A DNA stretch of 64,000 bases, taken from a virus (lineage: Duplodnaviria; Caudoviricetes). Both the position numbers and the translations under genes were made by a program. The notes under the pieces were generated by a model. The model worked only from the letters and a program-made list of their open reading frames with translations, had not been told where the DNA came from and ran no database searches. Location of the stretch: positions 1 to 64,000 of the IMG/VR virus record IMGVR_UViG_3300025608_000015; one strand, 5' to 3'. Of this stretch, positions 9,408 through 62,636 are shown piece by piece (positions within the stretch are counted from its first letter, which is position 1; every line of letters begins with the position of its first letter).

Positions 9408-12400
9408 ATGGCTGACTTTAAACTAGGGCGTATTAGATTTGTATGGAAAGGTGAATGGACCGGACCGAATACTTATTATAAAGACGATGTTGTTCGTTTC
9501 GGCGGTAAAACATTTATATGTTTAATCGGGCATACAACAAGTGCAACATTTAACGATGATTTAAACGCTAACGAACCGCGCTGGGAACAAATGTCAGACG
9601 GTGTTACTTGGAAAGGTAACTGGGCACCACAAACAGTATACGGCCTAAACGATATTGTAAAATATGGCGGCATGCTGTATATCTGTTCAGTTGGTCATAC
9701 TTCAGACAACGATTTTATTGGCGGATTAGAAAACGAATTAGGTCAAGATAGTTCCAATCCAAAGTGGGATTTATTCTGTGAAGGATTTGATTATTTAGGA
9801 ACATGGGTTGCAGAAACTAGATACAAATTAAATGATGTAGTTAAGTACGGTGCAAAAACTTATATTTGTCTAGAAGGTCATGTTGCAGCAGATGTAACAG
9901 GCGGAATACTTGCTGATGCAGACAAGTGGGAAGTGTTTAGCGAAGGTTTAGAATGGCAAGGTGATTGGCAGGCAAACACACGTTATAGACAGAGTGAAGT
10001 AGTAAAATATGGCGGGCAAGTATATGTGTGTAATACAGAGCATACTTCAGCTGCAACTGCCGCACTAGGATTAGAAGCTAATCAATCAAATTGGGATTAC
10101 TTACATCAAGGCATTGACTACCTTAGTGATTGGCAGCCAGCTACACGTTATAAAGTTAATGATGTTGTTAAAAATGGCGGCGGGCTTTGGATCTGTACTA
10201 CACATCATACCTCTGGAGCTAATGACGATTTAAGACAAGACGAATCTAATTGGGCAGAATTTTTACCAGGATTAGAGTTTGAAGATACCTGGGATTCGGC
10301 TACTAGTTACCAGTCAGGTGATATTGTAACCTACGGTGGTTATACATATATTGCAATTACAAACAATATCAATGTTATTCCTTATAACAACACCAGTGAC
10401 TGGGATTTATTTGTAACAGGATTTAATCTACAAGGCGACTATGATAACGGAACTGCTTATAAAACAGGTGATGTAGTAAGACTCGGCGGCTGGACTTACA
10501 TAGCAACAGCTGATACTACAGGCAATCGTCCTCCTAATCTTACTTATTGGGATAAGTTAAACGAAGGAGCGTACTGGAAAGATGCTTGGGCAGATGCAAC
10601 GTACTATGATAAAGGCGATGTAGTAAGGTACGGAAGTAATAGTTATATCTGTATTGCAGAACACACATCAGACGAAAATCCGCTTGTAGGCAATAACAGA
10701 CCAGATCAAGATATCAACGGTGTAAACTGGAATGTAATAAGTGGCGGTGTTGAATCTGCTAACTTAACAACAGCAGGCGATATAGTTTATTATGGCGGGT
10801 CAGGACCTACTCGTTTACCAGCAGGTGCACCTGGACAGGTATTACAAGTTAATCCAGACGGTGATGCACCAATTTGGTCAAACTTTGGTTACATCAATCA
10901 TGTTTACTATGTAGAACCTACTACAGGTGTAGATGAACCACCACCAGGAAGAGGTATTACAATTGACCGTCCTTATAAGAGTGTAAGATATGCATGTATG
11001 CAAATCGAACAGGGCGCAGCGCATCGCAATGCAAGAATAATGCTTGAGCATAATAGAAGTTTTATCCAAGCAGAAGTTGTAGAATTTGTTGACAACCAAA
11101 TTGCTAATAATACTCCTCCGTTTTCTAGTGTGTTTACATACGACAAAGAAAAATGCCGCAGAGATACAGGTATTATTGTAGACGCAATTACATGGGATTT
11201 AAGCCATGGAGGTAATGTAAGATCTAGACAAGCTGCTTTAGAATATTTCACAGAAGGTGGTCTAAGTTATATTGCTGGACAAGAAGATGAAACAGTTGCA
11301 GCATTAAATTATTCTTTAGTTGTAATGACAGCTATTTTAAGTAATCTAGCTCCAGCAACAAACTATCAAACACTTAACGGAGTAGGATCACCTATCACAC
11401 AACAAATTGATGGAACCTTAACTGCTGATAACGAATCTTTATCGATTGTTACTAATCTATTAAGTATTATTACAGGTGCTATTACAGCAGGAAACACAAA
11501 TAGTGTTCCAGCAGAATTAATTGCTCAGAAAACAGTTTTTGTTAAGACAGGTGAAACTCAAGAAGTTAGCCCAATCATTGTTCCGGAAAGTACAGCAGTT
11601 GTAGGCGACGAACTTCGTTCTGCTAGAATTGGTCTAGCAGATTCTTTAGTTGACCCTGGAGATGCTGTATATAGTTTAGAAGGTATTGCTAGGGTTAAAG
11701 ATATTATTGGAAATATTATTACTAATACTCCTGTTTCTAAAACAACAACAGGCGATGTACCTAACAATGAAACACAAGTAACTACTAGACCTGCAGGAAG
11801 CGTAGGCTCACTAGCTGCTGTTACTGCAATCGATGCAGGTGCTGACGAAATGCTTGACATTATAGAAAACGGCACTGCAAATGCAGACGCATTTTCTTTC
11901 AGCGATACTGGTGTAACTGCTAAAACAACTGCCCGCACAGAACTACAAACAAACAGAGCAGCTATCATTGCAGATCTTATTTCTTGGATAGGAACTAACT
12001 ATCCGTTGTTAACATACGATCAAACAAAGTGCGAAAGAGATACAGGCTATGCGATTGACGCTGTATCTTATGATATCCAATACGGTACAAACTGGGCTAC
12101 AGTAATTCAAGCAAGAAACTACTATGACCTAGACGGCAATTATGTTAAACCTGCTGACCAAAGAGCTCCGACTGCCGCAGCGATGAATCAACTTGCAGTT
12201 ATTATGGCTGATTACATGTCAGGTTCCACTGAAGAAGCAGAAGCAGTTACACTTTTAGGCGATTTAGCTGATGTAATTACAAACGGAATTGGTAATTTAC
12301 CGACTATTACATATCCTGATATTACTTGGGCTACGCAAGGTCTACAGGATGCAAATGCAGCAGTTTTAGCAAGAAAAGCTGAAACACAAACACAGGCTGT

Positions 12401-15341
12401 TTCGTTTGTTAAAGCAAATAATTCCGGATTCATTTTTAACGAAACTGTTTGTTACAGAGACTCTGGGTATATTGTAGAAGCATTAGCTTATGATATGGCA
12501 CTTGGAACAAACTATCAATCTGTAGTGGCTGCAACAAGTTACTATAAAGGCACTACTTCGTCACAAGAAGTAATTAACAATCAATTAGACGCAACTCTTG
12601 GTGCTGTTAGATTTATAAAACATAAGACAAGATTACTTGCAGCTACAGGTGCGGCAGCAAAAGCCGAAACATTAATGCAAGAAATTTATAATTATGTTGA
12701 TTTTAAAGTTAATGACAATGGATCAGAACCTACATACGCAGGACAAAACGATCCGTTAACTGATACAGGACATACATATGCTGTAGAAGTTTTAGAAGCA
12801 AATAAAGACTTTATTGCGGCAGAAGCGGTAGCATATGTACACGATCAAAATCCAGGTATTACCTACAGTGCAGAAGCATGTAAGAGAGATGTAAAAGCAT
12901 ATATCGACGGTATTAAACAAGACTTAATTTATACAGGCAATTATAGTTCAATAAATGCTGCTAGAGTATACTCTAATAGTGTAAACGGTTCCAGAGACCA
13001 AGATTTATTCTATTTAAGAAACGGTACAGGCTTACGTAATTGCACATTGTTTAATGCAACTGCTACGTTAAGTAATGCAAATCAGTATGGAACACAACGA
13101 CCTAACGGTGGAGCATATACATCTTTAGATCCAGGTTGGGGACCAGATCATTCTGCAGCATGGATTAAAAACAAATCTCCATACGTGCAGAATGTTACTA
13201 CATTCGGTGACTCGTGTGTAGGCTGTAAAGTAGACGGTAATTTACATAATGGCGGTAACGATTCGATTGTTGCCAACGACTTTACACAGATCTTAAGTGA
13301 CGGTATCGGTTATTGGGTGACTAATCTAGGAAGAGCAGAACTTGTATCTGTGTTCTGTTACTATAATCATATTGGATATCTAGCAGAAAATGGTGGTAAG
13401 ATTCGTGCAACAAACGGTAACAACTCTTACGGTGCGTTTGGTTCAGTAGCAGAAGGTATCGATGAAACAGAAGTACCAGTACTAGGTGTTGTAGATAATC
13501 GTCAGTTAGAAGCCCAAGTAGGACTTACTTTTACTGACGGTACAGATGAAATCTTACAACTAGAATATACATACGCAGGTGAAGGATATACAACAGCAAG
13601 CGATGCAATCATTGCTATGAATGCTCCTTCAGGCGGTAACGATAATACTAGAACAACTGGAACATATAAAAACGTATCAGGAACATCAAACGGATCAGGA
13701 ACAGGACAAGAATTTACTATTGTTGTAAATGAAGTCGGCGGCGTTGAAATTTTTGAAATCACCAAAGGCGGTAGCGGTCATTCAATTGGTGATACTATTA
13801 CATTTGATGCAAGCGAAATTGGAGGTACAGGCTCAGGATTTACTGCTACTATTTCTAATATAGGTGATGCTACTAGATTTACAATTAGCGGTGAAGGTTT
13901 TGGCGCTATAGTTAATGCTGCTCAAATATACGACGGTGGTGTTAAGGAAGTTCGCTTAACTAATCCTAGTGATAATTTTGGTGGTGAAGGTTATATTACC
14001 ATTGCAAGTAATGCACAAGCCGGAACGCCAACTCAAATCACTCTGTCTGCAACAGACGTTCGTCCAGACGATGCATACAACGGTATGGCAGTTTATCTAA
14101 CAGCAGGTAGAGGTGCTGGTCAGTACGGTTATATTACAGATTTTAATAGTGGTAATAAAATTGCTACAGTTTCTAAAATGAGTGACGGAACACCTGGGTG
14201 GGATCATGTTGTACCAGGAACAACTATCGAAACATTCTTAGATACAACTACTGCATATGATATTGCTCCTAGAGTTGAATTTAGCGCACCGCCTAGCGGA
14301 CTATATGCCGACACAGCCAGAGGTAGAGCAAGAGTAAGTGATGATCAAATTGTAGAAGTTAGAATAACACATCCAGGACAAGGATATCTAGCTCCACCTA
14401 CAATGACTGTTACAGATCCAAATGAACTAGTAGCTGTGTCTTATGAAGTAAGAATAGGCGACGGGGTACTAGGACAGCCTACATGGACAAACAGAGGAAC
14501 AGGATTTGTAACTGCAAGTACTCAAATTGTCGGTGACGGTTTTGCTGATATATTCCAAAATGGAACTAGAATACGTGTTGACGGACTAGATGATATACCG
14601 TTACCTGGAAGTAACGTAGAATTTGCTAGTATTCCAAATACTTGGTATAAACTTGTTACACTTACTAGCTTAATAGGTAACGGTCCTTACAGTGCAATTT
14701 TACAAGTATCGCCTGAAATTGATGTTAGCGACAATTTACCTCATGACGATGCAATTACTATTAGACGTAGATTCTCGCAAGTACGACTAACTGGACACGA
14801 CTTCCTAGATATTGGTACTGGTAACTTTACAAATACCAATTATCCAGGAGATCCTTTACAAGATCCAGATCCAACAAAAGAAACCAATGATAATGGCGGC
14901 GGACGAGTGTTCTACACTTCAACTGACCAAGATGGTAACTTCCGAGTTGGTGGATTGTTTAACGTTGAACAGGCAACTGGTATTGCAACACTGAACGTAG
15001 AAGCGTTTAACATTTCGGGTCTAAACGAACTACAATTGGGATCAGTTGCATTAGGCGGAACTGGTGCAATTATTACAGAATTTAGTACAGATGGAACGTT
15101 TGCAGCAGACAGTGACAGTATTGTACCAACACAAAAAGCAATCAAAACTTATATTACATCACAGATTGGTGGTGGTGCAGCAACATTGAACGTTAACAGT
15201 TTAACAGCAGGTGTCGTCGAAATAACAGGACAGCAGATTTCTACAGTAGATGATTCTCCGCTGAACATAAATACGAGTATGACATTCAATGCTCCTGTTG
15301 ATGGGGCCCCTATTGCACTGCAGATGTTCTTATTGAATTAA
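9408..15341 (+). CDS. Large virion fibre protein, paralog of 4552..9378, with helical CxRD inserts
   Basis: Same 8 N-terminal CBM-like repeats, same core and C-terminal motifs as 4552..9378; four (K/V/A)CxRDxG helical repeats (about 11151, 12027, 12447, 12876) inserted in the core. Confidence 0.75.
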   Translation: MADFKLGRIRFVWKGEWTGPNTYYKDDVVRFGGKTFICLIGHTTSATFNDDLNANEPRWEQMSDGVTWKGNWAPQTVYGLNDIVKYGGMLYICSVGHTSDNDFIGGLENELGQDSSNPKWDLFCEGFDYLGTWVAETRYKLNDVVKYGAKTYICLEGHVAADVTGGILADADKWEVFSEGLEWQGDWQANTRYRQSEVVKYGGQVYVCNTEHTSAATAALGLEANQSNWDYLHQGIDYLSDWQPATRYKVNDVVKNGGGLWICTTHHTSGANDDLRQDESNWAEFLPGLEFEDTWDSATSYQSGDIVTYGGYTYIAITNNINVIPYNNTSDWDLFVTGFNLQGDYDNGTAYKTGDVVRLGGWTYIATADTTGNRPPNLTYWDKLNEGAYWKDAWADATYYDKGDVVRYGSNSYICIAEHTSDENPLVGNNRPDQDINGVNWNVISGGVESANLTTAGDIVYYGGSGPTRLPAGAPGQVLQVNPDGDAPIWSNFGYINHVYYVEPTTGVDEPPPGRGITIDRPYKSVRYACMQIEQGAAHRNARIMLEHNRSFIQAEVVEFVDNQIANNTPPFSSVFTYDKEKCRRDTGIIVDAITWDLSHGGNVRSRQAALEYFTEGGLSYIAGQEDETVAALNYSLVVMTAILSNLAPATNYQTLNGVGSPITQQIDGTLTADNESLSIVTNLLSIITGAITAGNTNSVPAELIAQKTVFVKTGETQEVSPIIVPESTAVVGDELRSARIGLADSLVDPGDAVYSLEGIARVKDIIGNIITNTPVSKTTTGDVPNNETQVTTRPAGSVGSLAAVTAIDAGADEMLDIIENGTANADAFSFSDTGVTAKTTARTELQTNRAAIIADLISWIGTNYPLLTYDQTKCERDTGYAIDAVSYDIQYGTNWATVIQARNYYDLDGNYVKPADQRAPTAAAMNQLAVIMADYMSGSTEEAEAVTLLGDLADVITNGIGNLPTITYPDITWATQGLQDANAAVLARKAETQTQAVSFVKANNSGFIFNETVCYRDSGYIVEALAYDMALGTNYQSVVAATSYYKGTTSSQEVINNQLDATLGAVRFIKHKTRLLAATGAAAKAETLMQEIYNYVDFKVNDNGSEPTYAGQNDPLTDTGHTYAVEVLEANKDFIAAEAVAYVHDQNPGITYSAEACKRDVKAYIDGIKQDLIYTGNYSSINAARVYSNSVNGSRDQDLFYLRNGTGLRNCTLFNATATLSNANQYGTQRPNGGAYTSLDPGWGPDHSAAWIKNKSPYVQNVTTFGDSCVGCKVDGNLHNGGNDSIVANDFTQILSDGIGYWVTNLGRAELVSVFCYYNHIGYLAENGGKIRATNGNNSYGAFGSVAEGIDETEVPVLGVVDNRQLEAQVGLTFTDGTDEILQLEYTYAGEGYTTASDAIIAMNAPSGGNDNTRTTGTYKNVSGTSNGSGTGQEFTIVVNEVGGVEIFEITKGGSGHSIGDTITFDASEIGGTGSGFTATISNIGDATRFTISGEGFGAIVNAAQIYDGGVKEVRLTNPSDNFGGEGYITIASNAQAGTPTQITLSATDVRPDDAYNGMAVYLTAGRGAGQYGYITDFNSGNKIATVSKMSDGTPGWDHVVPGTTIETFLDTTTAYDIAPRVEFSAPPSGLYADTARGRARVSDDQIVEVRITHPGQGYLAPPTMTVTDPNELVAVSYEVRIGDGVLGQPTWTNRGTGFVTASTQIVGDGFADIFQNGTRIRVDGLDDIPLPGSNVEFASIPNTWYKLVTLTSLIGNGPYSAILQVSPEIDVSDNLPHDDAITIRRRFSQVRLTGHDFLDIGTGNFTNTNYPGDPLQDPDPTKETNDNGGGRVFYTSTDQDGNFRVGGLFNVEQATGIATLNVEAFNISGLNELQLGSVALGGTGAIITEFSTDGTFAADSDSIVPTQKAIKTYITSQIGGGAATLNVNSLTAGVVEITGQQISTVDDSPLNINTSMTFNAPVDGAPIALQMFLLN
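14778..14828 (+). repeat. Near-identical DNA block A, copy 2
   Basis: 49/51 nt identical to 8722..8772. Confidence 0.9.
14919..14982 (+). repeat. Near-identical DNA block B, copy 2
   Basis: 58/64 nt identical to 8881..8944. Confidence 0.9.
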
Positions 15342-15695: not shown

Positions 15696-16028
15696 ATGGG
15701 AAGATATATTACCACAACTGGAACAGCAGGAGTAGTAACAAAAGAAATTAGCGCAGATCACGATGCAGCTGTTAATGAAAGAATTTTAGCAGATGTTTCA
15801 ACTGCACCGATAACTATTACGTTACCTGCTAACTCAACGTTGTTATTAAACGATACTATCGAAATTATTGATGTTACTGGCAGTGCAGGCGGCAATGCAA
15901 TTACTGTTGGTAGAAACGGTTCATTAATCCAAGGTTCAACAGAAGATTTAACAATTGACGTAGCAGGATCTATTGTAACGTTAATTTACACTGGTGCAAC
16001 ATACGGATGGATCGTAGGTAGCGTATAA
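15696..16028 (+). CDS. Stand-alone tail-fibre proximal/connector domain (T4 gp34/gp9-like motif)
   Basis: DVSTAPITITLP...DTIEIID..G....N.ITV.RNG..IQG..EDL.I......VTLIY......GW is the motif typical of T4-like fibre attachment domains. Confidence 0.6.
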   Translation: MGRYITTTGTAGVVTKEISADHDAAVNERILADVSTAPITITLPANSTLLLNDTIEIIDVTGSAGGNAITVGRNGSLIQGSTEDLTIDVAGSIVTLIYTGATYGWIVGSV

Positions 16029-16049
16029 TTTAACGGACGGAGTTTTATA

Positions 16050-17024
16050 ATGGCATCATTGTCAGAATTAATAGCACAAAAAGCAGAAACTTACTCTGTA
16101 GGCGAACTAAACTTAGAGCAAGGCGAGATCTATTCTTTTGTGTCAGGAAACCAAAATAATAACTTTGCTGTAGATTGGTGTTGGCAGTCTCAAGGACGAT
16201 CTGGTACTGTTGTACTAGAAATTTGGGGAGCTGGTGGTTCAAGTTCAAGGACTTGTTGTTGTTCAGCTACAACTCCAGGTAACAGCGGAGCATATTCAAA
16301 GAAAACATTTGACGCAGACGGAAGTAGTTATATAACTGGTGTTAGCGGAATTCCTTGTAGAAATGCTGGCGATGAATTCTTTAGAGGATGTTCTGAGCCT
16401 ACTAAAATTTGTTGCTGGGTCGGTGCTACTGAAAATGGATGCATGTGTGCAGAAGGTGGCATTTCAGGACAATCATATTGTTCTTGTAATATTAGCCCGT
16501 TTTGTAGATTTGTATGCGAAGGATTTTGTAACACAGAAATTGGTCCTGGACAATGTGGCTTAATTTGTAATCATTTTGACACACGTTGGCTTGCAACAGC
16601 AGATGGCGGAGACATAAACTGCGGCGGTAGAATAAGTTGCATGAGTTTCTTATGCTGTTATGCAAACTGCTGGTGTAGACATAGACAGCACGTTGCAGGA
16701 CCTGCAGGACAATTTTCTAAGAAAGGTGTTACTTTAACATTTGCGCATGACACAGACAATGCAGCATATGGCGGACAAAGTGGACAAGGTGTGATCCATT
16801 TCCAGGCAGCAGTTAGAGGTGTTAGTAGACAACCGAGCGGCGGCTGGGATCTAAAAAGATGCTGGAACGGATTTACAAGTTGTGGTTGTTATGAAGCAAA
16901 TGGTTGCTATAGTTATATTCCTTATGGCTTTGGAGCACCTGCACCGACACCGTGTAGTGGCATGCGAGATGTAGGTTATGCTGGCGGCATGGGAATGACC
17001 AGAATTAAATTTATAGAGAACTAG
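16050..17024 (+). CDS. Cys-rich glycine-rich-domain tail fibre/tip protein, paralog 1
   Basis: 28 Cys in 324 aa by manual count; scaffold EIWGAGG...PGNSGAY.KK ... GG.G..RIKF. Confidence 0.65.
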   Translation: MASLSELIAQKAETYSVGELNLEQGEIYSFVSGNQNNNFAVDWCWQSQGRSGTVVLEIWGAGGSSSRTCCCSATTPGNSGAYSKKTFDADGSSYITGVSGIPCRNAGDEFFRGCSEPTKICCWVGATENGCMCAEGGISGQSYCSCNISPFCRFVCEGFCNTEIGPGQCGLICNHFDTRWLATADGGDINCGGRISCMSFLCCYANCWCRHRQHVAGPAGQFSKKGVTLTFAHDTDNAAYGGQSGQGVIHFQAAVRGVSRQPSGGWDLKRCWNGFTSCGCYEANGCYSYIPYGFGAPAPTPCSGMRDVGYAGGMGMTRIKFIEN

Positions 17025-17032
17025 GATTAGAT

Positions 17033-18004
17033 ATGGCAAAGTTATCAGGATTATTAGCACAAAGGTCAGCAGATCCTATAGAAAACAATCTGGAAGACGG
17101 AGAAATTTTCTTCTTTGGACACAGTGTAACATACGATGCTTGTAGAGAGTTTTGTTTCTGTGCACCAGCTCCAGGAACTGCAATTATTGAAGCAATAGGC
17201 GCAGGCGGATCTAGTGCTAAAATGTGCTGTTGCGGCGGCGGAATTCCAGGAAACAGCGGAGCGTATGTAAAGAAAACAATTACTATGGCTGCAAATCAGT
17301 ATGTTTGCGGTTGTTTAGGAAAAGCATGTAACGATGCAGATGCACTTTGCTTTAGAGGATGTTCAGCACCAACAATGTTATGTTGGATTTCATCAACTGC
17401 TGACGGGTGTATGTGTGCAGAAGGCGGACTAGGCGGATGTACTACGTGTAATCCTAACACTGCTGCAAGCAGATGTTTTAGATGTAACAACTTCTGTCAT
17501 ACAGTTTGCGGTTTTGATAATCAACCAGAGTGTGGACTTGTATGTAATATCGGAAATGGAAGATGGTGTGGCCTTGCGTATGGCGGAGATGTTAACAAAC
17601 CAAGTAATATAGGATGTGTAACATTCTACTGTTGTTCAAACGGTGGTTGGGAACTTTGTAGAATGGTATACCACGTTCCTATGGCTCCTGGTTTTTATAA
17701 TTCAGAAGAAGGAACTATCGTTCAATATACACCAGGCTGGGATAACATACATCACCTAAGACCAGGTAGTGGTCCTGTTAGCTTCGTACAAGCACTTCAG
17801 GCAGCTCACCGCTCGCCAGATGCACCGCCACGTGGATGGGCATGTTGGAACGGAAGATACTACGGGTGCTATAACGTATTTGGGTGCGGACACTGGTTAC
17901 CATTCGGAACAGGCGGACCACCACCAGCTGCATGCTGTGCAGTGCGAGATCACGCAACATTCGGCGGCGCTGGAGCTGTTAGAGTTAAATTTATAGAATC
18001 ATAG
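17033..18004 (+). CDS. Cys-rich glycine-rich-domain tail fibre/tip protein, paralog 2
   Basis: 32 Cys in 323 aa by manual count; shares GAGGSS..CCC..PGNSGAY.KK, FRGCS.PT, GCMCAEGG, CGL.CN, CW.G...GCY...GC and the KFIE C-terminus with paralog 1. Confidence 0.65.
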   Translation: MAKLSGLLAQRSADPIENNLEDGEIFFFGHSVTYDACREFCFCAPAPGTAIIEAIGAGGSSAKMCCCGGGIPGNSGAYVKKTITMAANQYVCGCLGKACNDADALCFRGCSAPTMLCWISSTADGCMCAEGGLGGCTTCNPNTAASRCFRCNNFCHTVCGFDNQPECGLVCNIGNGRWCGLAYGGDVNKPSNIGCVTFYCCSNGGWELCRMVYHVPMAPGFYNSEEGTIVQYTPGWDNIHHLRPGSGPVSFVQALQAAHRSPDAPPRGWACWNGRYYGCYNVFGCGHWLPFGTGGPPPAACCAVRDHATFGGAGAVRVKFIES

Positions 18005-18013
18005 GAGATAGAA

Positions 18014-18679
18014 GTGGAAAAAACTTTTACATGGAATAGACCAGACGAACCTTATGTGAATTCGTCTACTGGTACAAGGACAATTGATATTACATATACT
18101 GGACCTAGATATTTGTTAGTTGAATTAGATCCTAAATTAGGTACAGGGAGTTGCATTAGAAGCTCTGATGATGAAAATGATCCTGTATTAGATGCATCTG
18201 ATATGGCACATAATCAGTGGGAATACGTAGTTGTAGACGCTGAAGAATTACCTGCGTTAGCATGTTCTTTAACACTAGCATATAAACATCCAGATCCAAA
18301 TGATTGGACAGAGACGTTAACAGACGCCGACGGTGAAGACTTTGTATTTGAGCACACATACGATGAAACCACTGGTGTGATTGATCACGAAACAGCTGGG
18401 TTAAACGGAGGATACACTTATAATTTTAACCTTAGAACGTGGGAAGGTCCTGAGTATAGAGAGCATATGGTTAGTGCAACTGATTTTGAAAACGGTCGCT
18501 TAGACATGATTTCACAAATGCAGAATAGATTAGATAATGCAGAATCTCTTGGATATAACGAAGAGCAAATAGAAAGTATTACAAATTATAAAGAATACTT
18601 GGAAAGCATTCCGACTAAGTATGCAAGTATTCCTCATTGGAAACTTCCAACTAATATTGATTATCCGCAAAATATTTAA
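18014..18679 (+). CDS. Putative tail-fibre assembly/chaperone-like protein
   Basis: GTG start with AGGAG RBS; acidic 221 aa directly after the fibre-tip genes; C-terminal Y.EYL.SIP..Y...P.W..P resembles Tfa-type chaperone ends. Confidence 0.45.
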   Translation: MEKTFTWNRPDEPYVNSSTGTRTIDITYTGPRYLLVELDPKLGTGSCIRSSDDENDPVLDASDMAHNQWEYVVVDAEELPALACSLTLAYKHPDPNDWTETLTDADGEDFVFEHTYDETTGVIDHETAGLNGGYTYNFNLRTWEGPEYREHMVSATDFENGRLDMISQMQNRLDNAESLGYNEEQIESITNYKEYLESIPTKYASIPHWKLPTNIDYPQNI

Positions 18680-18692
18680 TAAAACCATTATT

Positions 18693-18742
18693 AACCGATC
18701 AGCTTAAGGTGTATACATATATACTTTACTGATCGGTTTTTT
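18693..18742 (+). terminator. Long hairpin with U-tract
   Basis: AACCGATCAG (18693-18702) pairs with CTGATCGGTT (18729-18738); inner GTATA-CATA-TATAC stem; followed by a T run. Confidence 0.6.
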
Positions 18743-18759
18743 AATGGAGAAAAAATTTA

Positions 18760-19704
18760 ATGTCAAGATCTAAAGCCTTTTTCTTAAACGGTGGCGCAGG
18801 CCGCATGCTTTGTTCAATTCCAGCCTTAGAAAAATACGCAGAAGAAAGCGGCGATGATGATTTTATCATTGTAGCAGAAGGCGGCACTGATATGTTTAAA
18901 GGACATCCAGTTTTGGATAGTAAAGCATATGATAACTGGACTAAAAATCTTTTTAATAATATGCTAAAAGATAGAGAATGTGTCTGGCCTGAACCTTATC
19001 AGCAATACGATTATTATAATCAAAATTGTAGTTTATCACAAGCATTTGATATAGTTATCAACAAAAACGGTATTAGAGAATTGCCTAAGCCAAAATTATA
19101 TCTTAGTAGAGATGAATTAGTAATCGGTAAAAAAGTAATTTCAGAAGTAAAAGAAAAGCTAAAAAAAGAAAAAGTTATTGTGATACAACCGTTTGGACGA
19201 GGCATCGAACTTATTGATAACACGTTGATTGATAAAACTGGTAGAAGCATAGAATTTAAAGACTTAAAAGAAATTATTAAGGCTTTACAAAAAGACGGTT
19301 ATGCTGTAATCATGATGAGTGAAATACACATGGACTTTAAAAACGATAAACTTAAAGACGAAGTTGCAATGCCAGAACAACTGAGTTTAAGACACTGGGC
19401 AGCAGTAATTAAATATGCAGACAAATTTTTAGGTTGTGATAGTGTTGGTCAGCACCTTGCGTATTCTGTAGAAACACCGACTGTTGCTATCATAGGTGCA
19501 ACTGATCCTATCAATGTTTCATACCCAGATTGTGATTTTTTTGATATATTAGATCTTGGACAAAATGACAGAAGATATTCTCCTATTAGAATTGTAATGG
19601 ATGAAGCAATTGATAGACACAACGAAAGATTAATGACCATGGACGAGCCTATTAGAGAATATGTAATTGATGTTATTTTAGAAAAAATTAAACATGAAGA
19701 ATAA
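18760..19704 (+). CDS. Glycosyltransferase family 9-like (heptosyltransferase-like)
   Basis: N-terminal NGGAGRMLCSIPAL (GT9 GGxGD...P-like), IVIQPFG, AAVIKYADKFLGCDSVGQHLAYSV.TPTVAIIG.T (GT9 DSG..HLA.A...P..A.FG.T). Confidence 0.75.
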   Translation: MSRSKAFFLNGGAGRMLCSIPALEKYAEESGDDDFIIVAEGGTDMFKGHPVLDSKAYDNWTKNLFNNMLKDRECVWPEPYQQYDYYNQNCSLSQAFDIVINKNGIRELPKPKLYLSRDELVIGKKVISEVKEKLKKEKVIVIQPFGRGIELIDNTLIDKTGRSIEFKDLKEIIKALQKDGYAVIMMSEIHMDFKNDKLKDEVAMPEQLSLRHWAAVIKYADKFLGCDSVGQHLAYSVETPTVAIIGATDPINVSYPDCDFFDILDLGQNDRRYSPIRIVMDEAIDRHNERLMTMDEPIREYVIDVILEKIKHEE

Positions 19705-20570
19705 TGTCTCGATTCTTTGTTTTAGGTTGTAGTTTTTCTAATTATGCTTGGCCTTCATGGGCCGATATAGTAGGAGAACAATACGATTTTTACGAAAACT
19801 GGGCTTGGCCAGGTTTAGGCAATAGGGCAATATTAGAAAGATTGTCTGAACTTATTCTAGTTCATAAAATACACGAAAAAGATACTATTATAATACAATG
19901 GACCAGTCATATTAGACACGACTGGCACACAACTGATGCTCGACACGGAGTGCCAGAAGGATGGAAAACCAGCGGAAGTATTTTTAATAGTATCAATAAA
20001 AAAATTTATAATAATAGTTGGCTTGATCAATTTTGGGATGAAAAAAGCTATGTAATGCATTCTTTAAATTGTATCCACGTAGCTCAAAAAATATTAAACA
20101 ATATTGGATGTACTTGGTTTATGACCAGTATGGGAAACATTGAAAAATTAAATTCAGATATTCCTGGAAATGATATATGTATAGATAAAAATAACATTGA
20201 AGAACAGAATATTTGGTCATTTGTACCGGAATTAAAAATTTACAAAGAAGAATTATTTACTAAATGTAAAGACAAATGGATTAAGCCAGTCGGAGTGTCT
20301 TCATGGCACGGGAATTATCCTGCATATAAATTTTTAGTAAAAAATATGTTAGGTTCTGCAAAATTTAGAACAGAATTTCATCCAACAATCTTACAACATA
20401 AAGAATTTGCTGTAGAGCATGTTTTACCTAAGTTAGACTGCAGCCAGTTTTTAAGTCCAAAAGTAGATATTTGGATAGATAAAGTAGAACAGTGTTATAC
20501 AGACTGTCATTCTGATTTTAATACCTTCGTTAAAAGCGTAGGTTGGAATAATCAATATAGAGGATTTTAA
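19704..20570 (+). CDS. SGNH/GDSL-like hypothetical protein
   Basis: VLGCSFS (GxS block I), N.A.PG.GN..I (block II), late FHPT..QH (block V-like); locally AT-rich. Confidence 0.45.
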   Translation: MSRFFVLGCSFSNYAWPSWADIVGEQYDFYENWAWPGLGNRAILERLSELILVHKIHEKDTIIIQWTSHIRHDWHTTDARHGVPEGWKTSGSIFNSINKKIYNNSWLDQFWDEKSYVMHSLNCIHVAQKILNNIGCTWFMTSMGNIEKLNSDIPGNDICIDKNNIEEQNIWSFVPELKIYKEELFTKCKDKWIKPVGVSSWHGNYPAYKFLVKNMLGSAKFRTEFHPTILQHKEFAVEHVLPKLDCSQFLSPKVDIWIDKVEQCYTDCHSDFNTFVKSVGWNNQYRGF

Positions 20571-20574
20571 TAAA

Positions 20575-22368
20575 ATGAAAAAACGTCCAGTATGGATTGC
20601 CGCAATAGCAAGAGGACATAATGCAGGTATATGTTTATTAAGAGATGGTGAAATTGTTTTTGCTAGCGAAGAAGAAAGATTTAGTCGGCAAAAATACGAC
20701 GGTGGCCCATTTGCTTGCATGGTAAAAATATTAGACTACACTGATAAACTAGATTATTTGGTAATTGCTCATACTCAACCTCTTTACGAAACTGCTGGAA
20801 GAGTAGATTATACAGGCGATGATATTTATACTGGCATGGCAAGAAAGTTAGGACTTATTAAAAATGAGCCTTATCAAATGGATGCTCATCCTCAAGTTAT
20901 TGATTTAGCTAATATGCACCATAAGTTACACGCAGCATGTGCATTTTATCGTTCTGGATTTGAAGATGCAGTTGCAGTATCAGTTGACGGCGCAGGAACA
21001 TTTTTCCCTTTACAAATTGGCCCAGAACAAGTAATGAGCTACGAGGTTGAAACTATTACTGATTGTGCTTATCCTGCAGAATTTGAAACTAAGTTTAAAG
21101 TTTATGGAGTGCGAGATCCTGTTCCTGCAGGTATCGTGCAAATGCCTAGTGATAGATTTGGTGAAACGGGTAAATTCCACGAAGCAGTTATTAGTGACAG
21201 AAGTGGTATTACAAAAGTATACGAAGGTGTTACAGAATACTGTGGATTTTCTGCAATTGAAGCAGGTAAAACTATGGGATTAAGTCCTTACGGCGAACCT
21301 GACGAAACTATTCCTCCGTTGTTTGATAAAGACTCTAAATATCCATTAAGTAATAGAAATATTATTATTCCAAGATATCCTAATGGCAGTATAGTTAACA
21401 GTGAGCTGTATGGAACGCTTGATGAATTTCCTGAAGAAGGACAGGATCTAACAGAACTTAAAAGTCGTAGGAATTTAGCATACGCTCTACAAAAAGAAAC
21501 TCAAGAGCAAGTACTTAATGTTATTCTAAAAGCAGTAGAAATGACAGGAAAGAAAAATGTTGTTCTATCAGGCGGTTATGCGTTAAATTGTGTTGCTAAT
21601 TATTTTTATCTTGATACACTCAATGAAAAAGGAATTAAACTTTACGTAGAACCAATTAGTTCAGATGCTGGCACAGCCCTTGGAGCTGCTTTAATTTTCC
21701 ATCATGCACTAGAAGATGACGAAACTATTCGTCCTGGTCATACATTATATCTTGGGCCTAAATATGATATTACAAATGATGATTTAGAAAAATTTAAAAG
21801 TTCCACTGTAGAAGTAATTGATGCAGATTATAATACAGTCGTTGATTTAATCACTAGTAAAAATATTGTTGCTATGTTCCAAGGTCGTGCAGAAAATGGT
21901 CCTAGAGCATTAGGCAATAGAAGTATAATGTACGATCCAACAGATCCAAACGGTAAAGACTTTGTTAATAAAGTAAAGCGCAGAGAATATTTCCGTCCAT
22001 TTGCAGGATCTATTCTAGAAGAGTATGCACACGAATGGTTCGACCTGCGAGGTATGGAGTCATCTCCGCATATGATGTATGCTATGAATTGTCAGCCAGG
22101 TGTTGAAGAAAAAATTCCTAGTATAATTCATGTTGATGGAACTTGTCGTATACAAACTGTTAATGCAGAACAAAACGAACACTACTATAATGTTATTAAA
22201 ACATTCTATGAACGTACAGGCGTGCCTATCATCTTTAATACGTCATTTAATCTAGGAGGTGAGCCACTTGTTGAAACACTAGATGATGCTGTGCGTACAT
22301 TAAAAAATAGTGAAATTGAATACCTATTCTTACCGGAGTTAGGTAAAATGGTAGTTGTAAAAAACTGA
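20575..22368 (+). CDS. O-carbamoyltransferase (NodU/CmcH/TobZ family)
   Basis: GHNAGICLL.DGEI.FA.EEERFSR.K, HHKLHAA.AFY.SGF, DGAG, GK.MGLS.YG, LSGG.ALNCVAN, DAG.ALGAA, GPRALGNRSI, KRRE.FRPFA, HVDGTCRIQTV, NTSFNL.GEPLV. Confidence 0.95.
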   Translation: MKKRPVWIAAIARGHNAGICLLRDGEIVFASEEERFSRQKYDGGPFACMVKILDYTDKLDYLVIAHTQPLYETAGRVDYTGDDIYTGMARKLGLIKNEPYQMDAHPQVIDLANMHHKLHAACAFYRSGFEDAVAVSVDGAGTFFPLQIGPEQVMSYEVETITDCAYPAEFETKFKVYGVRDPVPAGIVQMPSDRFGETGKFHEAVISDRSGITKVYEGVTEYCGFSAIEAGKTMGLSPYGEPDETIPPLFDKDSKYPLSNRNIIIPRYPNGSIVNSELYGTLDEFPEEGQDLTELKSRRNLAYALQKETQEQVLNVILKAVEMTGKKNVVLSGGYALNCVANYFYLDTLNEKGIKLYVEPISSDAGTALGAALIFHHALEDDETIRPGHTLYLGPKYDITNDDLEKFKSSTVEVIDADYNTVVDLITSKNIVAMFQGRAENGPRALGNRSIMYDPTDPNGKDFVNKVKRREYFRPFAGSILEEYAHEWFDLRGMESSPHMMYAMNCQPGVEEKIPSIIHVDGTCRIQTVNAEQNEHYYNVIKTFYERTGVPIIFNTSFNLGGEPLVETLDDAVRTLKNSEIEYLFLPELGKMVVVKN

Positions 22369-22395: not shown

Positions 22396-22920
22396 ATGTT
22401 ACCATTAGACCAGTATTTCTCTACCGGACCAAGAAAAACTGTACAATTTAATCCAGGGGTAAACTTGAGTGTTCAAGGACCCTGGACTGAGCTTTATGGT
22501 AAAACAGAAATTGATAGATTTGAGTTAGGCGAATTTGCTGGCGCCGAATATACTATTATAGCTGATTTTGACTATAATGTTAAAGAGATTATAAAATGTA
22601 TTGTAGTTGCAGGCGGATCAACTACTTCTGTTTTACCATATGCACGGGCAAGCGTTGGCGAAGACATTATAGATATTACTGCTGAAATAACAGATAGTTA
22701 TGTAACTGTAAATGCTACTCCAAAAGTTACCGACAGCGATATATCGCTAGAAGGTGCTAGTGTATTTTTTAGTGCTACGTACTTTAAAAACAATCATCCT
22801 TTATACCAGAGACAAAAAGAAACAGTTGTTCAAGAAGTTGGATTAACTGGTTTATCAACATTTGACAATATTTCACTAACCTTTGATGGCATTAGTGTAA
22901 CGTTTGATCGGGGACAATAA
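22396..22920 (+). CDS. Hypothetical virion structural protein
   Basis: 174-aa beta-rich ORF with AAGGA RBS; stop overlaps the next start (TAATG). Confidence 0.6.
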   Translation: MLPLDQYFSTGPRKTVQFNPGVNLSVQGPWTELYGKTEIDRFELGEFAGAEYTIIADFDYNVKEIIKCIVVAGGSTTSVLPYARASVGEDIIDITAEITDSYVTVNATPKVTDSDISLEGASVFFSATYFKNNHPLYQRQKETVVQEVGLTGLSTFDNISLTFDGISVTFDRGQ

Positions 22921-24254
22921 TGGCTAAACAAGCATTAAACTTAGGTATATCAGCAAATGACGGGACGGGCGATACCCTAAGGTCAGGCGGTGATAAAATT
23001 AATGATAACTTTAACGAATTATACGGTAGTTTGGGTAATGGAACTGCTTTATTAGACGTTGTAAACAATAATTTAGAAATAGACGTTGCAGGTAAAGCTA
23101 ATAAAATTAGCTTCCTTTACGATACCGAAGGCGACTTGCCCGATGCAACAATTTATCACGGTGCTATTGCTCATGTTCATGCAACCGGGACATTGTATTA
23201 TGCCCACAGCGGAACTTGGAATAAATTACTTGCAGACGCTTCAGGACTAGGCGGAGTTACAAACTATACAGATCCTTTAGAATCAGTTGCTTATGCAGGC
23301 ACAATTTCTAGTTTGATTGATGTAGATTTATCAACTCCGGCAACACAGAATCAAGTATTAACTTATAACGGTTCAGCTTGGACAGCTGAAGATCCTACTG
23401 GAGGTGGTGCGTCTGCATTAGAAGATTTAACAAATGTAAGTACTAATGCTCCAACTACTGGTCAAGTTTTAAAATGGGACGGAAATCAGTGGGCACCTGC
23501 TGCTGACATTACTTCAGGCGGCGCTGGGTTAGATGCAGACACTCTTGACGGGCAAGACGGCAGTTATTATCTAAGTTATAATAACTTTACAGGTGCTGCA
23601 ACTGTAACATCCTTAACAATGGGTGGAAGAACAGTAAACACTATTAGTACAGATATAGCTAGTAATAGAGCAACTGCTCTAGCAACAGAAGCAACTGTAA
23701 AAGCATATGTTGATGCTAATGGCGGTGGTGGAAGTATTGATCCATCATCTAATATAGAAGTTAATACCGTAACAGCAACAAGTTTTATCAATGACGGTAC
23801 TGGTGCTCCTACAATTACAAGTGGCTCTAACTTAACAATAACTGCACCAGGCGGAGTTGTTGTTTCTGACAGCATTAGTGCAGGATTGTTTGATATAACA
23901 AGAAGTACTGAAACATTAGTATCATCTAGTCTTAGTACAACTACAAATTTAAATACACAAAATTCACAGATCTTTTACTTAACAGGTGCAGGATCTGGAT
24001 TAACAGCAACCTTAAACTTCCAAAATGTTCCTACTACAAACAATAAAACAATCAGCTTTGCAGTAGTTGTTGATCAGCAAGCAACTCCAGACGATATAAC
24101 AACTGTGCAAATAGACGGATCTGCTCAGACAGTAAATTGGGTAGGAGGATCAGCACCGAGCGGTACTGCTAGTTCTAAAGATGTGTTTAACTTTACATTT
24201 ATTAGAACAAGCAATGCTTGGGTTGTGTTAGGTAATTTGACAAGTTTTAGTTAA
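22920..24254 (+). CDS. Baseplate/fibre adaptor with T4 gp9/gp10-like N-terminus
   Basis: MAKQALNLGISANDGTGDTLRSGGDKINDNFNELY is the T4 gp9/10 N-terminal signature; also has L.DL..V....P..GQVL.W..W repeats and DADTLDGQD; shares TG.LYYAH.G.W.KL..D with 46957..48276. Confidence 0.7.
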   Translation: MAKQALNLGISANDGTGDTLRSGGDKINDNFNELYGSLGNGTALLDVVNNNLEIDVAGKANKISFLYDTEGDLPDATIYHGAIAHVHATGTLYYAHSGTWNKLLADASGLGGVTNYTDPLESVAYAGTISSLIDVDLSTPATQNQVLTYNGSAWTAEDPTGGGASALEDLTNVSTNAPTTGQVLKWDGNQWAPAADITSGGAGLDADTLDGQDGSYYLSYNNFTGAATVTSLTMGGRTVNTISTDIASNRATALATEATVKAYVDANGGGGSIDPSSNIEVNTVTATSFINDGTGAPTITSGSNLTITAPGGVVVSDSISAGLFDITRSTETLVSSSLSTTTNLNTQNSQIFYLTGAGSGLTATLNFQNVPTTNNKTISFAVVVDQQATPDDITTVQIDGSAQTVNWVGGSAPSGTASSKDVFNFTFIRTSNAWVVLGNLTSFS

Positions 24255-34771: not shown

Positions 34772-35382
34772 CTCAAACTATCAACAAAGGAACTAAGATC
34801 ATCAAATATGATGGTCTTTTTCTTTAATTCTCGATAGGTAAATTTTTTAAGTTCTTTTTCTGTTTCTAATCCGTGCCCTGTCCTAACAAGCACAGGTCGA
34901 GCTCCGATTTTAGCCGCAGCTTTTAGATCTGTAATTTTATCGCCTACATAATAGCCGCGAGAAAATTTTATATAAGGCATTTCTTTTTCGCAACGTTTAA
35001 ACATACCTACATTAGGTTTTGCCCACATATCATCTTTGCGTGAACTTGCAGAAAAATATATGCCATTAATAGCAGCACATCCTGCTTTACCAAATAGGTC
35101 TAGCATATGATAGTTTACTGCTTCAACTTGTTCTTGAGTGCAGATTCCTTTTTCGATACACCCTTGATTGGTAATAATAGCAATCTTATGTCCTAATTTT
35201 CTTAGTTTTGCAACTGCTTCTATGCTCCCTGGAATAGGTTTAAAGTCTTCTGGTTTATAACAATATCCTTCCACGTTTTCATTAATAACACCGTCACGGT
35301 CTAATCCTACTACACATTTAGGAGGAATCCAATTAGGATCTTTATAATTTAGATCGTCCCCACTCCAGATAATGTCAACCAT
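34768..35382 (-). CDS. gmhB: D,D-heptose 1,7-bisphosphate phosphatase (HAD IIIA)
   Basis: LDRDGVIN, ITNQG, KPNVGMF, VGDKITDLKAA...VLVRTGHG. Confidence 0.85.
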   Translation of the reverse strand: MVDIIWSGDDLNYKDPNWIPPKCVVGLDRDGVINENVEGYCYKPEDFKPIPGSIEAVAKLRKLGHKIAIITNQGCIEKGICTQEQVEAVNYHMLDLFGKAGCAAINGIYFSASSRKDDMWAKPNVGMFKRCEKEMPYIKFSRGYYVGDKITDLKAAAKIGARPVLVRTGHGLETEKELKKFTYRELKKKTIIFDDLSSFVDSLS

Positions 35383-35764
35383 CTTTAGCCTCTATTTGTG
35401 TATCGCCTTGACTAATTCTGTAAATGTCCTCTACACTATCAGGAGTACTAACTTCTGTGATACTAGAATTATCTTCTAATGCTTCTAATTGATGGGGAAC
35501 TAAACATGGTGTATGCCAAGCATCACCTTCTTTTAATTCTTTAGTAATCAAAGTAGCAGATTTAGTTTCAATAGTTCTAAGTAAAAAACTACCAGAATTA
35601 ATAAACCAAGTCTTGTCCTTTTCTTTATGAAAATTCATGCTGGTTTTTGCACCAGCTTTTTCGAAAACTATAATTTTACCGCAGTATAAGTCGTTGGTTG
35701 CAAAAATTAATTCATACCCCCATCCTTTTTTTACTGCTCCTGATAATCTAGTTGGGTTATCCAT
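35375..35764 (-). CDS. Cupin-fold protein (sugar isomerase/epimerase-like)
   Basis: V.KGWG.E....NDLYCGK...S(MNFH)KEKDKTW..NSG and W.TP...PHQLEAL...I.EVST cupin motifs. Confidence 0.7.
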   Translation of the reverse strand: MDNPTRLSGAVKKGWGYELIFATNDLYCGKIIVFEKAGAKTSMNFHKEKDKTWFINSGSFLLRTIETKSATLITKELKEGDAWHTPCLVPHQLEALEDNSSITEVSTPDSVEDIYRISQGDTQIEAKDG

Positions 35765-36581
35765 TTTTATCTATCCATTCAAAAACTGTTGTAAATTTAT
35801 AATCACCTATTTCTGCTAAAAGAAGTTGATTGTTGCTTTTTGTAAAACGTTGATATTGCTTTTCTAATTCTTTTGGCATAGGTATTTCTTGTACACTACT
35901 ATTATACTGTCTAGCAATGTATTCAGCAACCTTTTTAAATGAAATAGCAGTTCCTGTACCTAAGTTATAAATGCCGTTTACATCTTTAAACAAAAACTGT
36001 GACATAATATTACATACATCTTCTACACAAATAAAATCTCTTAAATAATTTTCACTATTTTCAAAAATTTGAATATTTTGTGTAGTCCTTGCTTGATTTT
36101 TAAATTTATGAAAAACACTGGCCATTTTGCCTTTGTGATCCTCGTAATTCCCATAAACATTAAAAAATCTAAATCCTTGTACATTAATTGTAAATCCATC
36201 AATATGCTCGTTTACAAATTTGTCAAATAGATACTTGCTCCATGCATATGGATTCATAGGATAATGTGGTCCTTCTTCATTAAATGTAGTTAAATCCCCG
36301 TATACACTTGCACTAGAAGCATATTGAAAGTTTGTTCCTACCATATCACAAACTTGTAATAATCTTAGACTAAAATCTAAATTTTGTTCTAAAACTTGAT
36401 CTACGTCTCTACATGTTGTATCTGTGATAGCACCTAAATGTACAACCCAGTCATAATTAGCTGGATCAGGAACAGTGTTTGGAATATATTCCCATCCTTC
36501 TACATCGTGTCCTTGATTCATTAAATGCAGACACATATTTTTTCCGATAAATCCTTGATGTCCGGTTACTAAAATACGCAT
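35757..36581 (-). CDS. hldD: ADP-L-glycero-D-manno-heptose 6-epimerase-like extended SDR
   Basis: ILVTGHQGFIG, YASSASVYG, PMNPYAWSK (YxxxK), FRFFNVYG..EDHKGKMASV, RDFICVEDV, YNLGTG, YQRFT match RfaD/HldD. Confidence 0.85.
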   Translation of the reverse strand: MRILVTGHQGFIGKNMCLHLMNQGHDVEGWEYIPNTVPDPANYDWVVHLGAITDTTCRDVDQVLEQNLDFSLRLLQVCDMVGTNFQYASSASVYGDLTTFNEEGPHYPMNPYAWSKYLFDKFVNEHIDGFTINVQGFRFFNVYGNYEDHKGKMASVFHKFKNQARTTQNIQIFENSENYLRDFICVEDVCNIMSQFLFKDVNGIYNLGTGTAISFKKVAEYIARQYNSSVQEIPMPKELEKQYQRFTKSNNQLLLAEIGDYKFTTVFEWIDKNG

Positions 36582-62611: not shown

Positions 62612-62630
62612 AATAAAAAACATTACATTG

Positions 62631-62636
62631 TAAATA
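62631..62636 (+). promoter_or_regulatory. Late-promoter-like TAAATA
   Basis: 5 nt before the 62642 ATG. Confidence 0.5.

Follow-up and report, generated by a model that had tools for sequence, protein, structure and literature searches.

A conserved phage gene cassette for predicted cysteine-rich fibre tips, a GT9-like transferase and a carbamoyltransferase, with a possible role in fibre decoration

The DNA analyzed here (the window) covers the initial 64 kb of a viral contig of 90.8 kb from IMG/VR (record IMGVR_UViG_3300025608_000015; CheckV completeness, 26%). Between positions 15,696 and 22,368, seven open reading frames (ORFs) are packed on the plus strand, separated by 4 to 80 nt except at one ATGA overlap (Table 1). 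An original prediction, made from the sequence alone, had described this tight block as a dedicated module for decorating phage fibres, and every ORF was recovered as it had been described. The products are a small fibre connector, two cysteine-rich paralogs, a chaperone-like protein, a GT9-like transferase, an SGNH-like protein and a carbamoyltransferase. The block lies within a virion-structural region, as predicted: genes for 1608- and 1977-amino-acid (aa) fibre proteins lie upstream, and genes for a gp9/10-like baseplate connector, an S8 protease and a 2492-aa protein lie downstream. A megablast search of the block against phages gave no match. At the level of gene order, the arrangement is conserved far beyond chance.

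Conservation of the neighbourhood had been set beforehand as the check on the module, and we found that the order recurs from each of two anchors. With an alignment of 15 cysteine-rich sequences as the query, 78 viral loci were fetched, and every one of these with enough flank encodes the giant fibre protein, the 106-aa and 110-aa proteins, two to four cysteine-rich paralogs, the 221-aa homolog, the GT9-like protein and the carbamoyltransferase, usually together with the 174-aa ORF. The 110-aa protein, the connector of the original prediction, matches internal segments of tail fibre and tail spike PHROGs; it was found in 68 of the 78 loci and is 110 aa long every time. With the GT9-like protein as the anchor, the best 80 of at least 581 viral stretches were examined, and the carbamoyltransferase gene lies no more than 2.5 kb downstream in 74 of 77 loci, with cysteine-rich genes no more than 6 kb upstream in 55 of 65. 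The 174-aa gene adjoins the GT9-like gene even where loci are rearranged. The isolate cyanomyoviruses S-CAM1, S-SSM7 and P-SSM2 have the same gene order, with proteins of 25–36 cysteines, and for S-SSM7 and P-SSM2 the annotation of the gene at the giant-fibre position reads tail fiber protein. In three divergent loci (L180-L182; 36–45% GT identity), the genes directly upstream encode other Cys/Gly-rich proteins, among them one of 670 aa with 68 Cys and one of 591 aa with 52 Cys, and L180 and L182 have proteins that end in the C-terminal strand motif of the glycine-rich domain.

Table 1. Features of the window that bear on the cassette, with their positions and the evidence for each call
Feature	Position	Strand	Evidence or remark
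Giant fibre protein, 1977 aa, heading the module	9408..15341	+	Homologs upstream in 66 of 78 loci
Small fibre-associated protein, 106 aa	15353..15673	+	phrog_11338 (tail fiber protein), 2.7e-8; in 68 of 78 loci, plus S-CAM1 and P-SSM2
110-aa protein like an internal segment of long tail fibre/spike proteins	15696..16028	+	14 PHROG matches, several of them tail fibre or tail spike
Predicted Cys-rich fibre-tip protein A, 324 aa, 28 Cys	16050..17024	+	TNF-like and glycine-rich-domain fold (model)
Predicted Cys-rich fibre-tip protein B, 323 aa, 32 Cys	17033..18004	+	Paralog of A; phrog_4205
Putative fibre assembly chaperone, 221 aa	18014..18679	+	Position; phrog_9740; atlas leads
Divergent GT9-like glycosyltransferase, 314 aa	18760..19704	+	PF01075, 3.5e-8; phrog_8954, 1e-132
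SGNH-fold protein, 288 aa, accessory	19704..20570	+	Model fold; conserved residues
NodU/CmcH/TobZ-type O-carbamoyltransferase, 597 aa, complete	20575..22368	+	PF02543 and PF16861, full length
Conserved 174-aa protein closing the module	22396..22920	+	In 57 of 78 and 67 of 80 loci; no Pfam, PHROG or NCBIfam match
gp9/gp10-like baseplate wedge/tail fibre connector	22920..24254	+	PF07880, 1.8e-8; phrog_677, 6.6e-22
S8 subtilase, directly after the gp9/10-like gene	24256-26199		PF00082, 1.5e-27; weak C-terminal cupredoxin-like match (E 0.0066)
GmhB-like heptose-1,7-bisphosphate phosphatase	34768..35382	-	NF006506, 3.3e-36, 124.5 bits (below equivalog cut-off of 178)
Small cupin	35375..35764	-	Cupin_2, 4e-4
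HldD-like ADP-glyceromanno-heptose 6-epimerase	35757..36581	-	TIGR02197, 1.8e-67, 227.8 bits (below cut-off of 274.6; by far the best match)
Fusion of RfaE-domain-II-like heptose-1-phosphate adenylyltransferase and phosphomannose isomerase (PMI)-type cupin	62642..63415	+	TIGR02199, 1.3e-22; PF01467, 1.2e-13; PF01050, 4.2e-22

Among 185,579 species genomes, 14 loci matched the GT9-like subfamily, all in metagenome-assembled genomes (MAGs) of unrelated phyla, including archaea. Thirteen of the 14 also carry the carbamoyltransferase, and several carry fibre genes too. The MAG contigs (L171-L183, including L173 and L179 from PBPT01, of 335 kb and 153 kb) are labelled Neomarinimicrobiota, Methanobacteriota, Chitinophagales and Actinomycetota, among others, and are probably phage contigs mis-binned into public MAGs. 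On this evidence the GT9-like subfamily appears to be effectively virus-restricted, with the cassette present in no bona fide cellular genome.

The window or its contig encodes a T4-type large terminase, gp32-like and UvsX-like proteins, a gp15 tail-sheath stabilizer and a gp9/10-like baseplate connector. The terminase is nearest (54% identity) to those of jumbo myoviruses such as Pseudomonas phage PA5oct, followed by Atu_ph07 and GAP32, and not to those of cyanomyoviruses. Contigs that share the module reach 364 kb at 100% estimated completeness, and psbA was not found in these complete 364-kb relatives, although the control search gave its expected match. From the terminase relatives, the size of the complete relatives and the lack of psbA in them, we conclude that the source is an uncultured aquatic PA5oct-like jumbo myovirus whose host is probably not a cyanobacterium. 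The cassette order is thus common to psbA-less jumbo myoviruses and to T4-like cyanomyoviruses, two unrelated phage lineages.

The two paralogs contain exactly the 28 and 32 cysteines that the original prediction had counted, and they are 39% identical to each other (E 4e-65). Cysteine makes up 8.6% of protein A and 9.9% of protein B, versus 0.9% of the other long plus-strand ORFs of the window. From a full HMMER scan of 1.84 billion representatives, about 150 clusters (at 50% identity) were assigned to the family; almost all of them represent stand-alone proteins of 310–350 aa, and its members contain 19–39 cysteines (median, 30) and 15% glycine. A model of protein A built on 74 family members (predicted local distance difference test [pLDDT] of 87; predicted template-modelling score [pTM] of 0.86) superimposes on the Pam3 fibre protein gp24 (7ypx) with a Z score of 15.1 over 192 aligned residues. 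Further matches were to the Bxb1 tail tip (9d93, chain Q; Z 11.5) and the ALK/LTK glycine-rich domain (Z 7–9.7), and the next unrelated fold scored 4.6. According to the model, A and B are both fibre tips like Pam3 gp24, in which a short N-terminal helix is combined with a TNF-like sandwich and a glycine-rich domain.

Sequence profiles gave little for this family. Neither A nor B matches the Pfam model Gly_rich_2 (PF21722), which matches 2 of the 74 family members (best E 1.4e-5), and the family profile had no match among Protein Data Bank (PDB) sequences. An hhalign comparison of the family with the canonical Gly_rich_2 protein of the same contig aligned only the C-terminal strand (probability 0.3%). 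A tblastn search of protein A against phages was also without a match, probably an effect of the low-complexity filter, as the S-CAM1 paralogs are related. Within the family, 14 of the 28 cysteines of protein A are each kept in at least 80% of the 74 members, with a CCC motif after the first G-rich strand. Because half of the cysteine positions are conserved as a framework, a structural role fits these residues better than a role as glycosylation sites; they most likely form that framework via disulfides or bound metal, rather than carrying sugars.

Two other kinds of related gene were seen. The canonical Gly_rich_2 fibre protein (contig C1:85760-87352; L006:10761-12353) has 530 aa with 116 Gly and 1 Cys and no adjoining glyco-enzymes, in contrast to the cysteine-rich subtype. 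A solo cysteine-rich paralog (318–319 aa, 33–34 Cys) is present at a second locus in L018, L029, L030, L032 and L044, where it lies directly upstream of ORFs of 1100–1700 aa with no GT or carbamoyltransferase gene nearby; two such loci share a contig with a full module.

A homolog of the 221-aa protein, 210–240 aa in size, is encoded directly 3' of the cysteine-rich genes in 66 of the 78 loci, which is every locus with enough downstream sequence; in L180 and P-SSM2 this gene is interleaved with the cysteine-rich genes. The protein has no Pfam or NCBIfam match and no detectable HMM relation to gp25/Tfa. Atlas feature leads for it were Phage_tail_APC (46% of the cluster, 0.90) and Caudo_TAP (18%, 0.88). 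We therefore keep the chaperone-like call by position and by these weak leads, and regard the protein as a putative fibre assembly chaperone.

The assignment of the next protein to GT9 was borne out by a match to PF01075 above the gathering score (33.5 bits vs a cut-off of 22; residues 170–252 only) and by a profile match to the donor-binding half of WaaC. In hhalign comparisons with E. coli WaaC/F/Q/U, 94 columns of the donor-binding domain aligned with 93.5% probability (E 2.3e-7). D227 and H232 lie opposite WaaC D261 and H266, within the GT9 signature D(S/T)G..H(L/I)A, and the donor-binding signature GCDSxGQH is invariant in 27 GT9-like sequences. The N-terminal acceptor half, in contrast, had no significant match to lipopolysaccharide (LPS) enzymes in profile searches, and the family profile reached WaaC among PDB sequences only at E ~0.7. 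The acceptor half thus appears to be highly diverged, as fits a non-LPS acceptor without naming one. A greedy, global hhalign run was colinear over 284 columns, which is suggestive of a GT-B fold of two Rossmann domains, and it placed an invariant G14-R15 opposite WaaC G12-D13 with moderate posterior confidence. Asp13 of WaaC is the catalytic residue of the N-terminal G-D loop; if this alignment is right, the phage protein has no such Asp and may be without a base of the WaaC kind. On the strength of the donor-binding half, we consider the protein a probable ADP-heptose-dependent transferase. The cyanophage GT9-like proteins carry a low-complexity C-terminal extension; the 288-aa ORF of the window was considered as a split-off of this extension, and the idea was rejected because the two have no similarity. 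A distant GT9-like homolog of 246 aa (27% identity) is encoded by Vibrio phage D505 (L085, 9478-10215) between virion proteins of 2109 and 1756 aa; this arrangement is that of 77-kb Vibrio phages, with no carbamoyltransferase or cysteine-rich genes nearby.

The carbamoyltransferase is complete, as had been claimed. PF02543 (Carbam_trans_N) matches over positions 10-346 of 346 and PF16861 (Carbam_trans_C) over positions 2-165 of 170, both above their cut-offs, so the Kae1-like N-terminal and YrdC-like C-terminal domains are both present. phmmer matches to solved carbamoyltransferases ranged from 2e-61 to 5e-42 (7xb6, at 2e-61, and NovN, GdmN and TobZ). The NodU equivalog NF041651 scored 135 bits against a cut-off of 1000, indicating that the protein is a member of the family and not a NodU ortholog. 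A second, half-size carbamoyltransferase, which has the N-terminal domain alone (PF02543, 8e-21), is encoded elsewhere on the contig (C1:79295-80260; L006:4296-5261) between a primase and a DnaB-like helicase, and it could have a nucleic-acid-related function of its own, different from that of the fibre-region enzyme.

The SGNH-like protein has no Pfam, PHROG or NCBIfam match, and the atlas gave a DUF6071-like lead, yet its predicted model bears out the call. The model, built from 15 homologs (pLDDT 71, with disordered insertions), matches TesA with a Z score of 11.6 (root-mean-square deviation [rmsd] 3.5, 166 of 177 residues aligned), and its top 50 matches are all GDSL/SGNH proteins. Residues G8-C9-S10 (the G-x-S of block I, with its nucleophile Ser), G39-N40 (a candidate for the Asn of block III) and H226-P-T are invariant in the 15 homologs; an acidic residue stands two positions ahead of His226, versus three in the D-x-x-H of block V. 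Roughly a quarter to a third of the loci carry the gene (18 of 78 with the cysteine-rich anchor, 27 of 80 with the GT9-like anchor), some of them in duplicate. The original prediction had listed it among the seven genes of the block; at this frequency it is an accessory.

Genes for ADP-heptose supply lie in the same window. On the minus strand between 34768 and 38473, genes for the gp15 tail-sheath stabilizer, a Nudix protein, an HldD-like epimerase, a small cupin and a GmhB-like phosphatase follow one another head to tail, and a fusion with an RfaE-domain-II-like part is encoded at 62.6 kb (Table 1). In relatives G004 and G005, a 380-aa PfkB kinase is encoded between the Nudix gene and hldD, a spot where the window has none, and a PfkB kinase lies inside the heptose cassette in four of the five larger relatives. 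A SIS-type GmhA was not found in the five jumbo relatives (G001-G005), two of which are complete. Both the jumbo phages and S-CAM1 retain the small cupin in their heptose cassettes: G001 and G002 have homologs of it in the heptose cluster, and these also match an S-CAM1 ORF (L001, 11223-11576, annotated "putative nucleotidyltransferase") within the heptose cluster of that phage. One of the conserved cupin domains, among which is the one fused to the adenylyltransferase, may be a non-orthologous sedoheptulose-7-phosphate isomerase or a heptose-modifying epimerase. In L181 and L182, a gmhB homolog directly follows the carbamoyltransferase gene, and in the isolates S-CAM1, S-SSM7 and P-SSM2 the module is followed by the two halves of hldE, gmhA and hldD.

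We tentatively favour the interpretation that the block is part of a self-contained, seemingly virus-restricted cassette that would put carbamoyl-heptose on the phage's own fibres. The GT9-like enzyme would transfer heptose onto a fibre protein in the cytoplasm, with the cysteine-rich tips of the genes just upstream as the most likely acceptor and the neighbouring giant fibres as the other candidate. This heptose would next be O-carbamoylated by the carbamoyltransferase, as proposed for WapO acting on HepII of the Pseudomonas LPS core, and where the SGNH gene is present, its product would add or remove an O-acyl group. The cysteines would staple the tip by disulfides or bound metal, while the glycan could tune receptor binding or shield the exposed tip. 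What favours a phage protein as the acceptor is the portability of the cassette, a host LPS without Kdo or heptose, the strings of structural genes in which the enzymes are found, and the position of the D505 homolog between virion proteins. The cyanobacterial hosts of cyanophages have LPS that lacks both Kdo and heptose (PMC4390846). If the acceptor travels within the cassette, this would explain why the enzymes work in both phage settings and why the cyanophages carry the whole donor pathway. From the original prediction of a dedicated decoration module, we retain the conserved cassette and the gene identities; the supply of ADP-heptose in the window had not been connected with the block there, and the SGNH protein is no core part of it.

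Several observations weigh against decoration of the fibres. A glycan on the virion proteins remains a prediction from gene content. To our knowledge, TibC and Aah alone among GT9 enzymes act on proteins, and the phage protein scores 15–38 bits against NCBIfam equivalogs, TibC/Aah included, whose cut-offs are 170–467; the match to TIGR04414 (TibC/Aah) itself is weak and partial (6e-5, 22 bits vs a cut-off of 200). Because all equivalog cut-offs are missed, we place the protein in a distinct and apparently virus-restricted subfamily. The best NCBIfam models are those of WaaQ/heptosyltransferase III and RfaQ, enzymes that act on LPS. The alignment of an invariant Arg to Asp13 of WaaC makes the chemistry, or even activity, uncertain. 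The four loci examined of the ten without an upstream cysteine-rich gene (L138, L140, L150 and L169) have the GT9-SGNH-carbamoyltransferase genes with none within 10 kb upstream, although their downstream sequence is incomplete; in these four, the enzyme block lies back-to-back with giant fibre genes. A PfkB kinase and a SIS-type GmhA isomerase were not found in the contig, which is 26% complete, so neither is read as absent from the phage. Finally, sigma-70 and terminator scans of the window were at chance level, and no timing of expression is readable from them.

The most serious competitor is remodelling of the host surface, which we consider possible but rather unlikely. The enzymes would put carbamoyl-heptose onto the LPS core, O-chain or exopolysaccharide of the host late in infection and so mask the receptor; progeny would be spared loss on infected cells and debris, competitors would be excluded, and co-evolution would keep the enzymes together with the receptor-binding genes. 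The NCBIfam matches to LPS heptosyltransferases speak for such a role, as do the carbamoylation of HepII by WapO in the Pseudomonas core (PMC8005017), the publication of the cyanophage genes as "LPS gene clusters" (PMC3037559) and the interpretation of pelagimyophage fibre-region glycosyltransferases as host-surface modifiers (PMC7029224). However, GT9 enzymes extend a Kdo/heptose core, which is missing from cyanobacterial LPS, and one cassette is found in phages of clearly different hosts. The acceptor-binding half is unmatched to LPS enzymes, the subfamily was not found in real cellular genomes, and the genes appear to belong to the structural operon rather than to the early genes.

It is improbable that the enzymes have no substrate link to the fibres at all, with the pair making a free or lipid-linked carbamoyl-heptoside or the GT9-like protein serving as a non-catalytic fibre assembly factor. 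The invariant Arg opposite the catalytic Asp13 of WaaC and the confident match of only ~94 columns to GT9 would suit such a role, but GCDSxGQH is invariant in 27 sequences, and an intact carbamoyltransferase and ADP-heptose enzymes would be pointless beside a dead transferase. The original prediction had also raised S-linkage of the sugar to cysteine. In this variant of fibre decoration, which strikes us as a long shot, the GT9-like enzyme would be a thiol-directed S-heptosyltransferase that places carbamoyl-heptose on some of the ~30 tip cysteines. The Arg aligned to Asp13 of WaaC, at moderate confidence, gives a weak hint in its favour, while the conservation of half of the cysteines as a framework speaks against it.

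Hypermodification of DNA, in which the carbamoyltransferase would make 5-carbamoyloxymethylcytosine and/or the GT would glycosylate a modified base, is the least credible alternative and very improbable: phage NodU-family enzymes can carbamoylate 5-hydroxymethylcytosine (5hmC) in DNA (PMC8670742), and the half-size carbamoyltransferase of the contig lies between a primase and a helicase, but the partners of the fibre-region enzyme are GT9-like, fibre and heptose genes, and in the published case thymidylate synthase and deaminase genes accompany the DNA-modifying enzymes, while contigs with carbamoyltransferases beside glycosyltransferases were unmodified. The original prediction had already counted the lack of a nearby hydroxymethylase against this alternative. 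A search for dCMP hydroxymethylase (PF00303) was negative in the contig, in two 100%-complete 364-kb relatives and in two partial relatives, with controls that matched, and the lack of a thymidylate-synthase-family hydroxymethylase there weakens the alternative further. Searches for TET/JBP (PF12851) and for Erv1/ALR (PF04777) gave no match, but their positive controls were also silent.

For decoration of the fibres by heptose, the closest mechanistic analogy is provided by the autotransporter O-heptosyltransferases TibC and Aah, GT9-related enzymes that use ADP-heptose as the donor and heptosylate a protein adhesin in the cytoplasm. Unlike them, the phage protein has only the weak, partial HMM match given above, and its candidate acceptors are not autotransporters. 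With WaaC, WaaF, WaaQ and WapO the cassette shares the GT9 donor signature, co-encoded ADP-heptose genes and the pairing of GT9 with a NodU-family carbamoyltransferase. In Pseudomonas, this pairing lies in the core cluster, and carbamoyl-HepII of the core is attributed to WapO (PMC8005017). The phage gene differs from the LPS enzymes in falling below all equivalog cut-offs, in an acceptor half that cannot be aligned, in the Arg in place of Asp13, in its apparent restriction to viruses and in its position among fibre genes. The 5hmC carbamoyltransferase (PMC8670742) belongs to the same two-domain family and is also found in phage, but its neighbours are thymidylate-synthase-like and deaminase genes, whereas here they are fibre, GT9-like and heptose genes.

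On the fibre side, Pam3 gp24 is folded by the chaperone gp25, which is encoded directly downstream (PMC9608196), and Pam3 fibres are attached to the baseplate through disulfides (PMC9942802). The modelled tips resemble gp24/gp25 (7ypx/7yfw) in the N-terminal helix, the TNF-like sandwich, the glycine-rich tip and the separate gene in the chaperone position. They differ in that 19–39 cysteines (about 9%) replace part of the glycine lattice, two to four paralogs stand in tandem, 72 of 74 members are too dissimilar for Gly_rich_2, and glyco-enzymes follow the chaperone-like gene. Modification of virion proteins by phage enzymes is itself known: mycobacteriophage glycosyltransferases modify the C-termini of capsid and tail-tube subunits of their own virions (Freeman et al. 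2023, as cited in PMC12619734). The likeness lies in phage-encoded glycosyltransferases with the phage's own virion proteins as targets; the GT families and hosts are different, and heptose, carbamoylation and cysteine-rich tips do not feature in that system as it is cited.

The cyanophage part of the cassette has been described before. Sullivan et al. (2010; PMC3037559) reported "LPS gene clusters" in P-SSM2, S-SSM7 and S-SM2 and left their function open ("stuffer DNA" or functionally linked); the homologous block contains T4-GC 302 (GT9-like), 303 (carbamoyltransferase) and 304-308 (heptose pathway). That work drew no connection to the upstream cysteine-rich fibre proteins or to jumbo phages of other hosts, and we found no later paper that explains the cyanophage "LPS genes" or links them to cysteine-rich fibre tips or jumbo phages. 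Our analysis indicates that the core of these genes, an ADP-heptose-fed pair of GT9-like protein and carbamoyltransferase, is a virus-restricted cassette rather than a stray host acquisition. It is tied to cysteine-rich, Pam3-like tips, is present on at least 581 viral contigs, and is common to cyanomyoviruses and ~360-kb jumbo phages of other hosts. Virion glycosylation by mycobacteriophages and the GT9-carbamoyltransferase pairing of the Pseudomonas core were already known. Should a fibre prove to be the acceptor, the known range of phage virion glycosylation would grow by receptor-binding tips, heptose and carbamoylation, with a bearing on host range, on particle stability in seawater and on fibre engineering. 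Were S-heptosylation true, both the protein-sugar linkage, for GT9 enzymes, and this route to phage receptor-binding tips would be new. Phages with published virion proteomes (S-SM1, S-PM2 and Syn9) are not among the GT9-like matches in phages; cultured carriers are P-SSM2 (host, Prochlorococcus NATL1A) and, with Synechococcus as host, S-SSM7, S-CAM1 and S-CAM3.

The window has no tRNAs. The T4 late promoter motif TATAAATA occurs once in it, versus 9.45 expected, and this depletion indicates that the motif is not used here; this T4-like jumbo phage probably uses some other late promoter. A second sugar-related cluster (window 61592-63415 and contig C1:63339-67374) encodes a GSCFA-family (SGNH-like) protein, the RfaE-II/PMI-cupin fusion, a 579-aa GT8 protein and an S-adenosylmethionine (SAM) methyltransferase.

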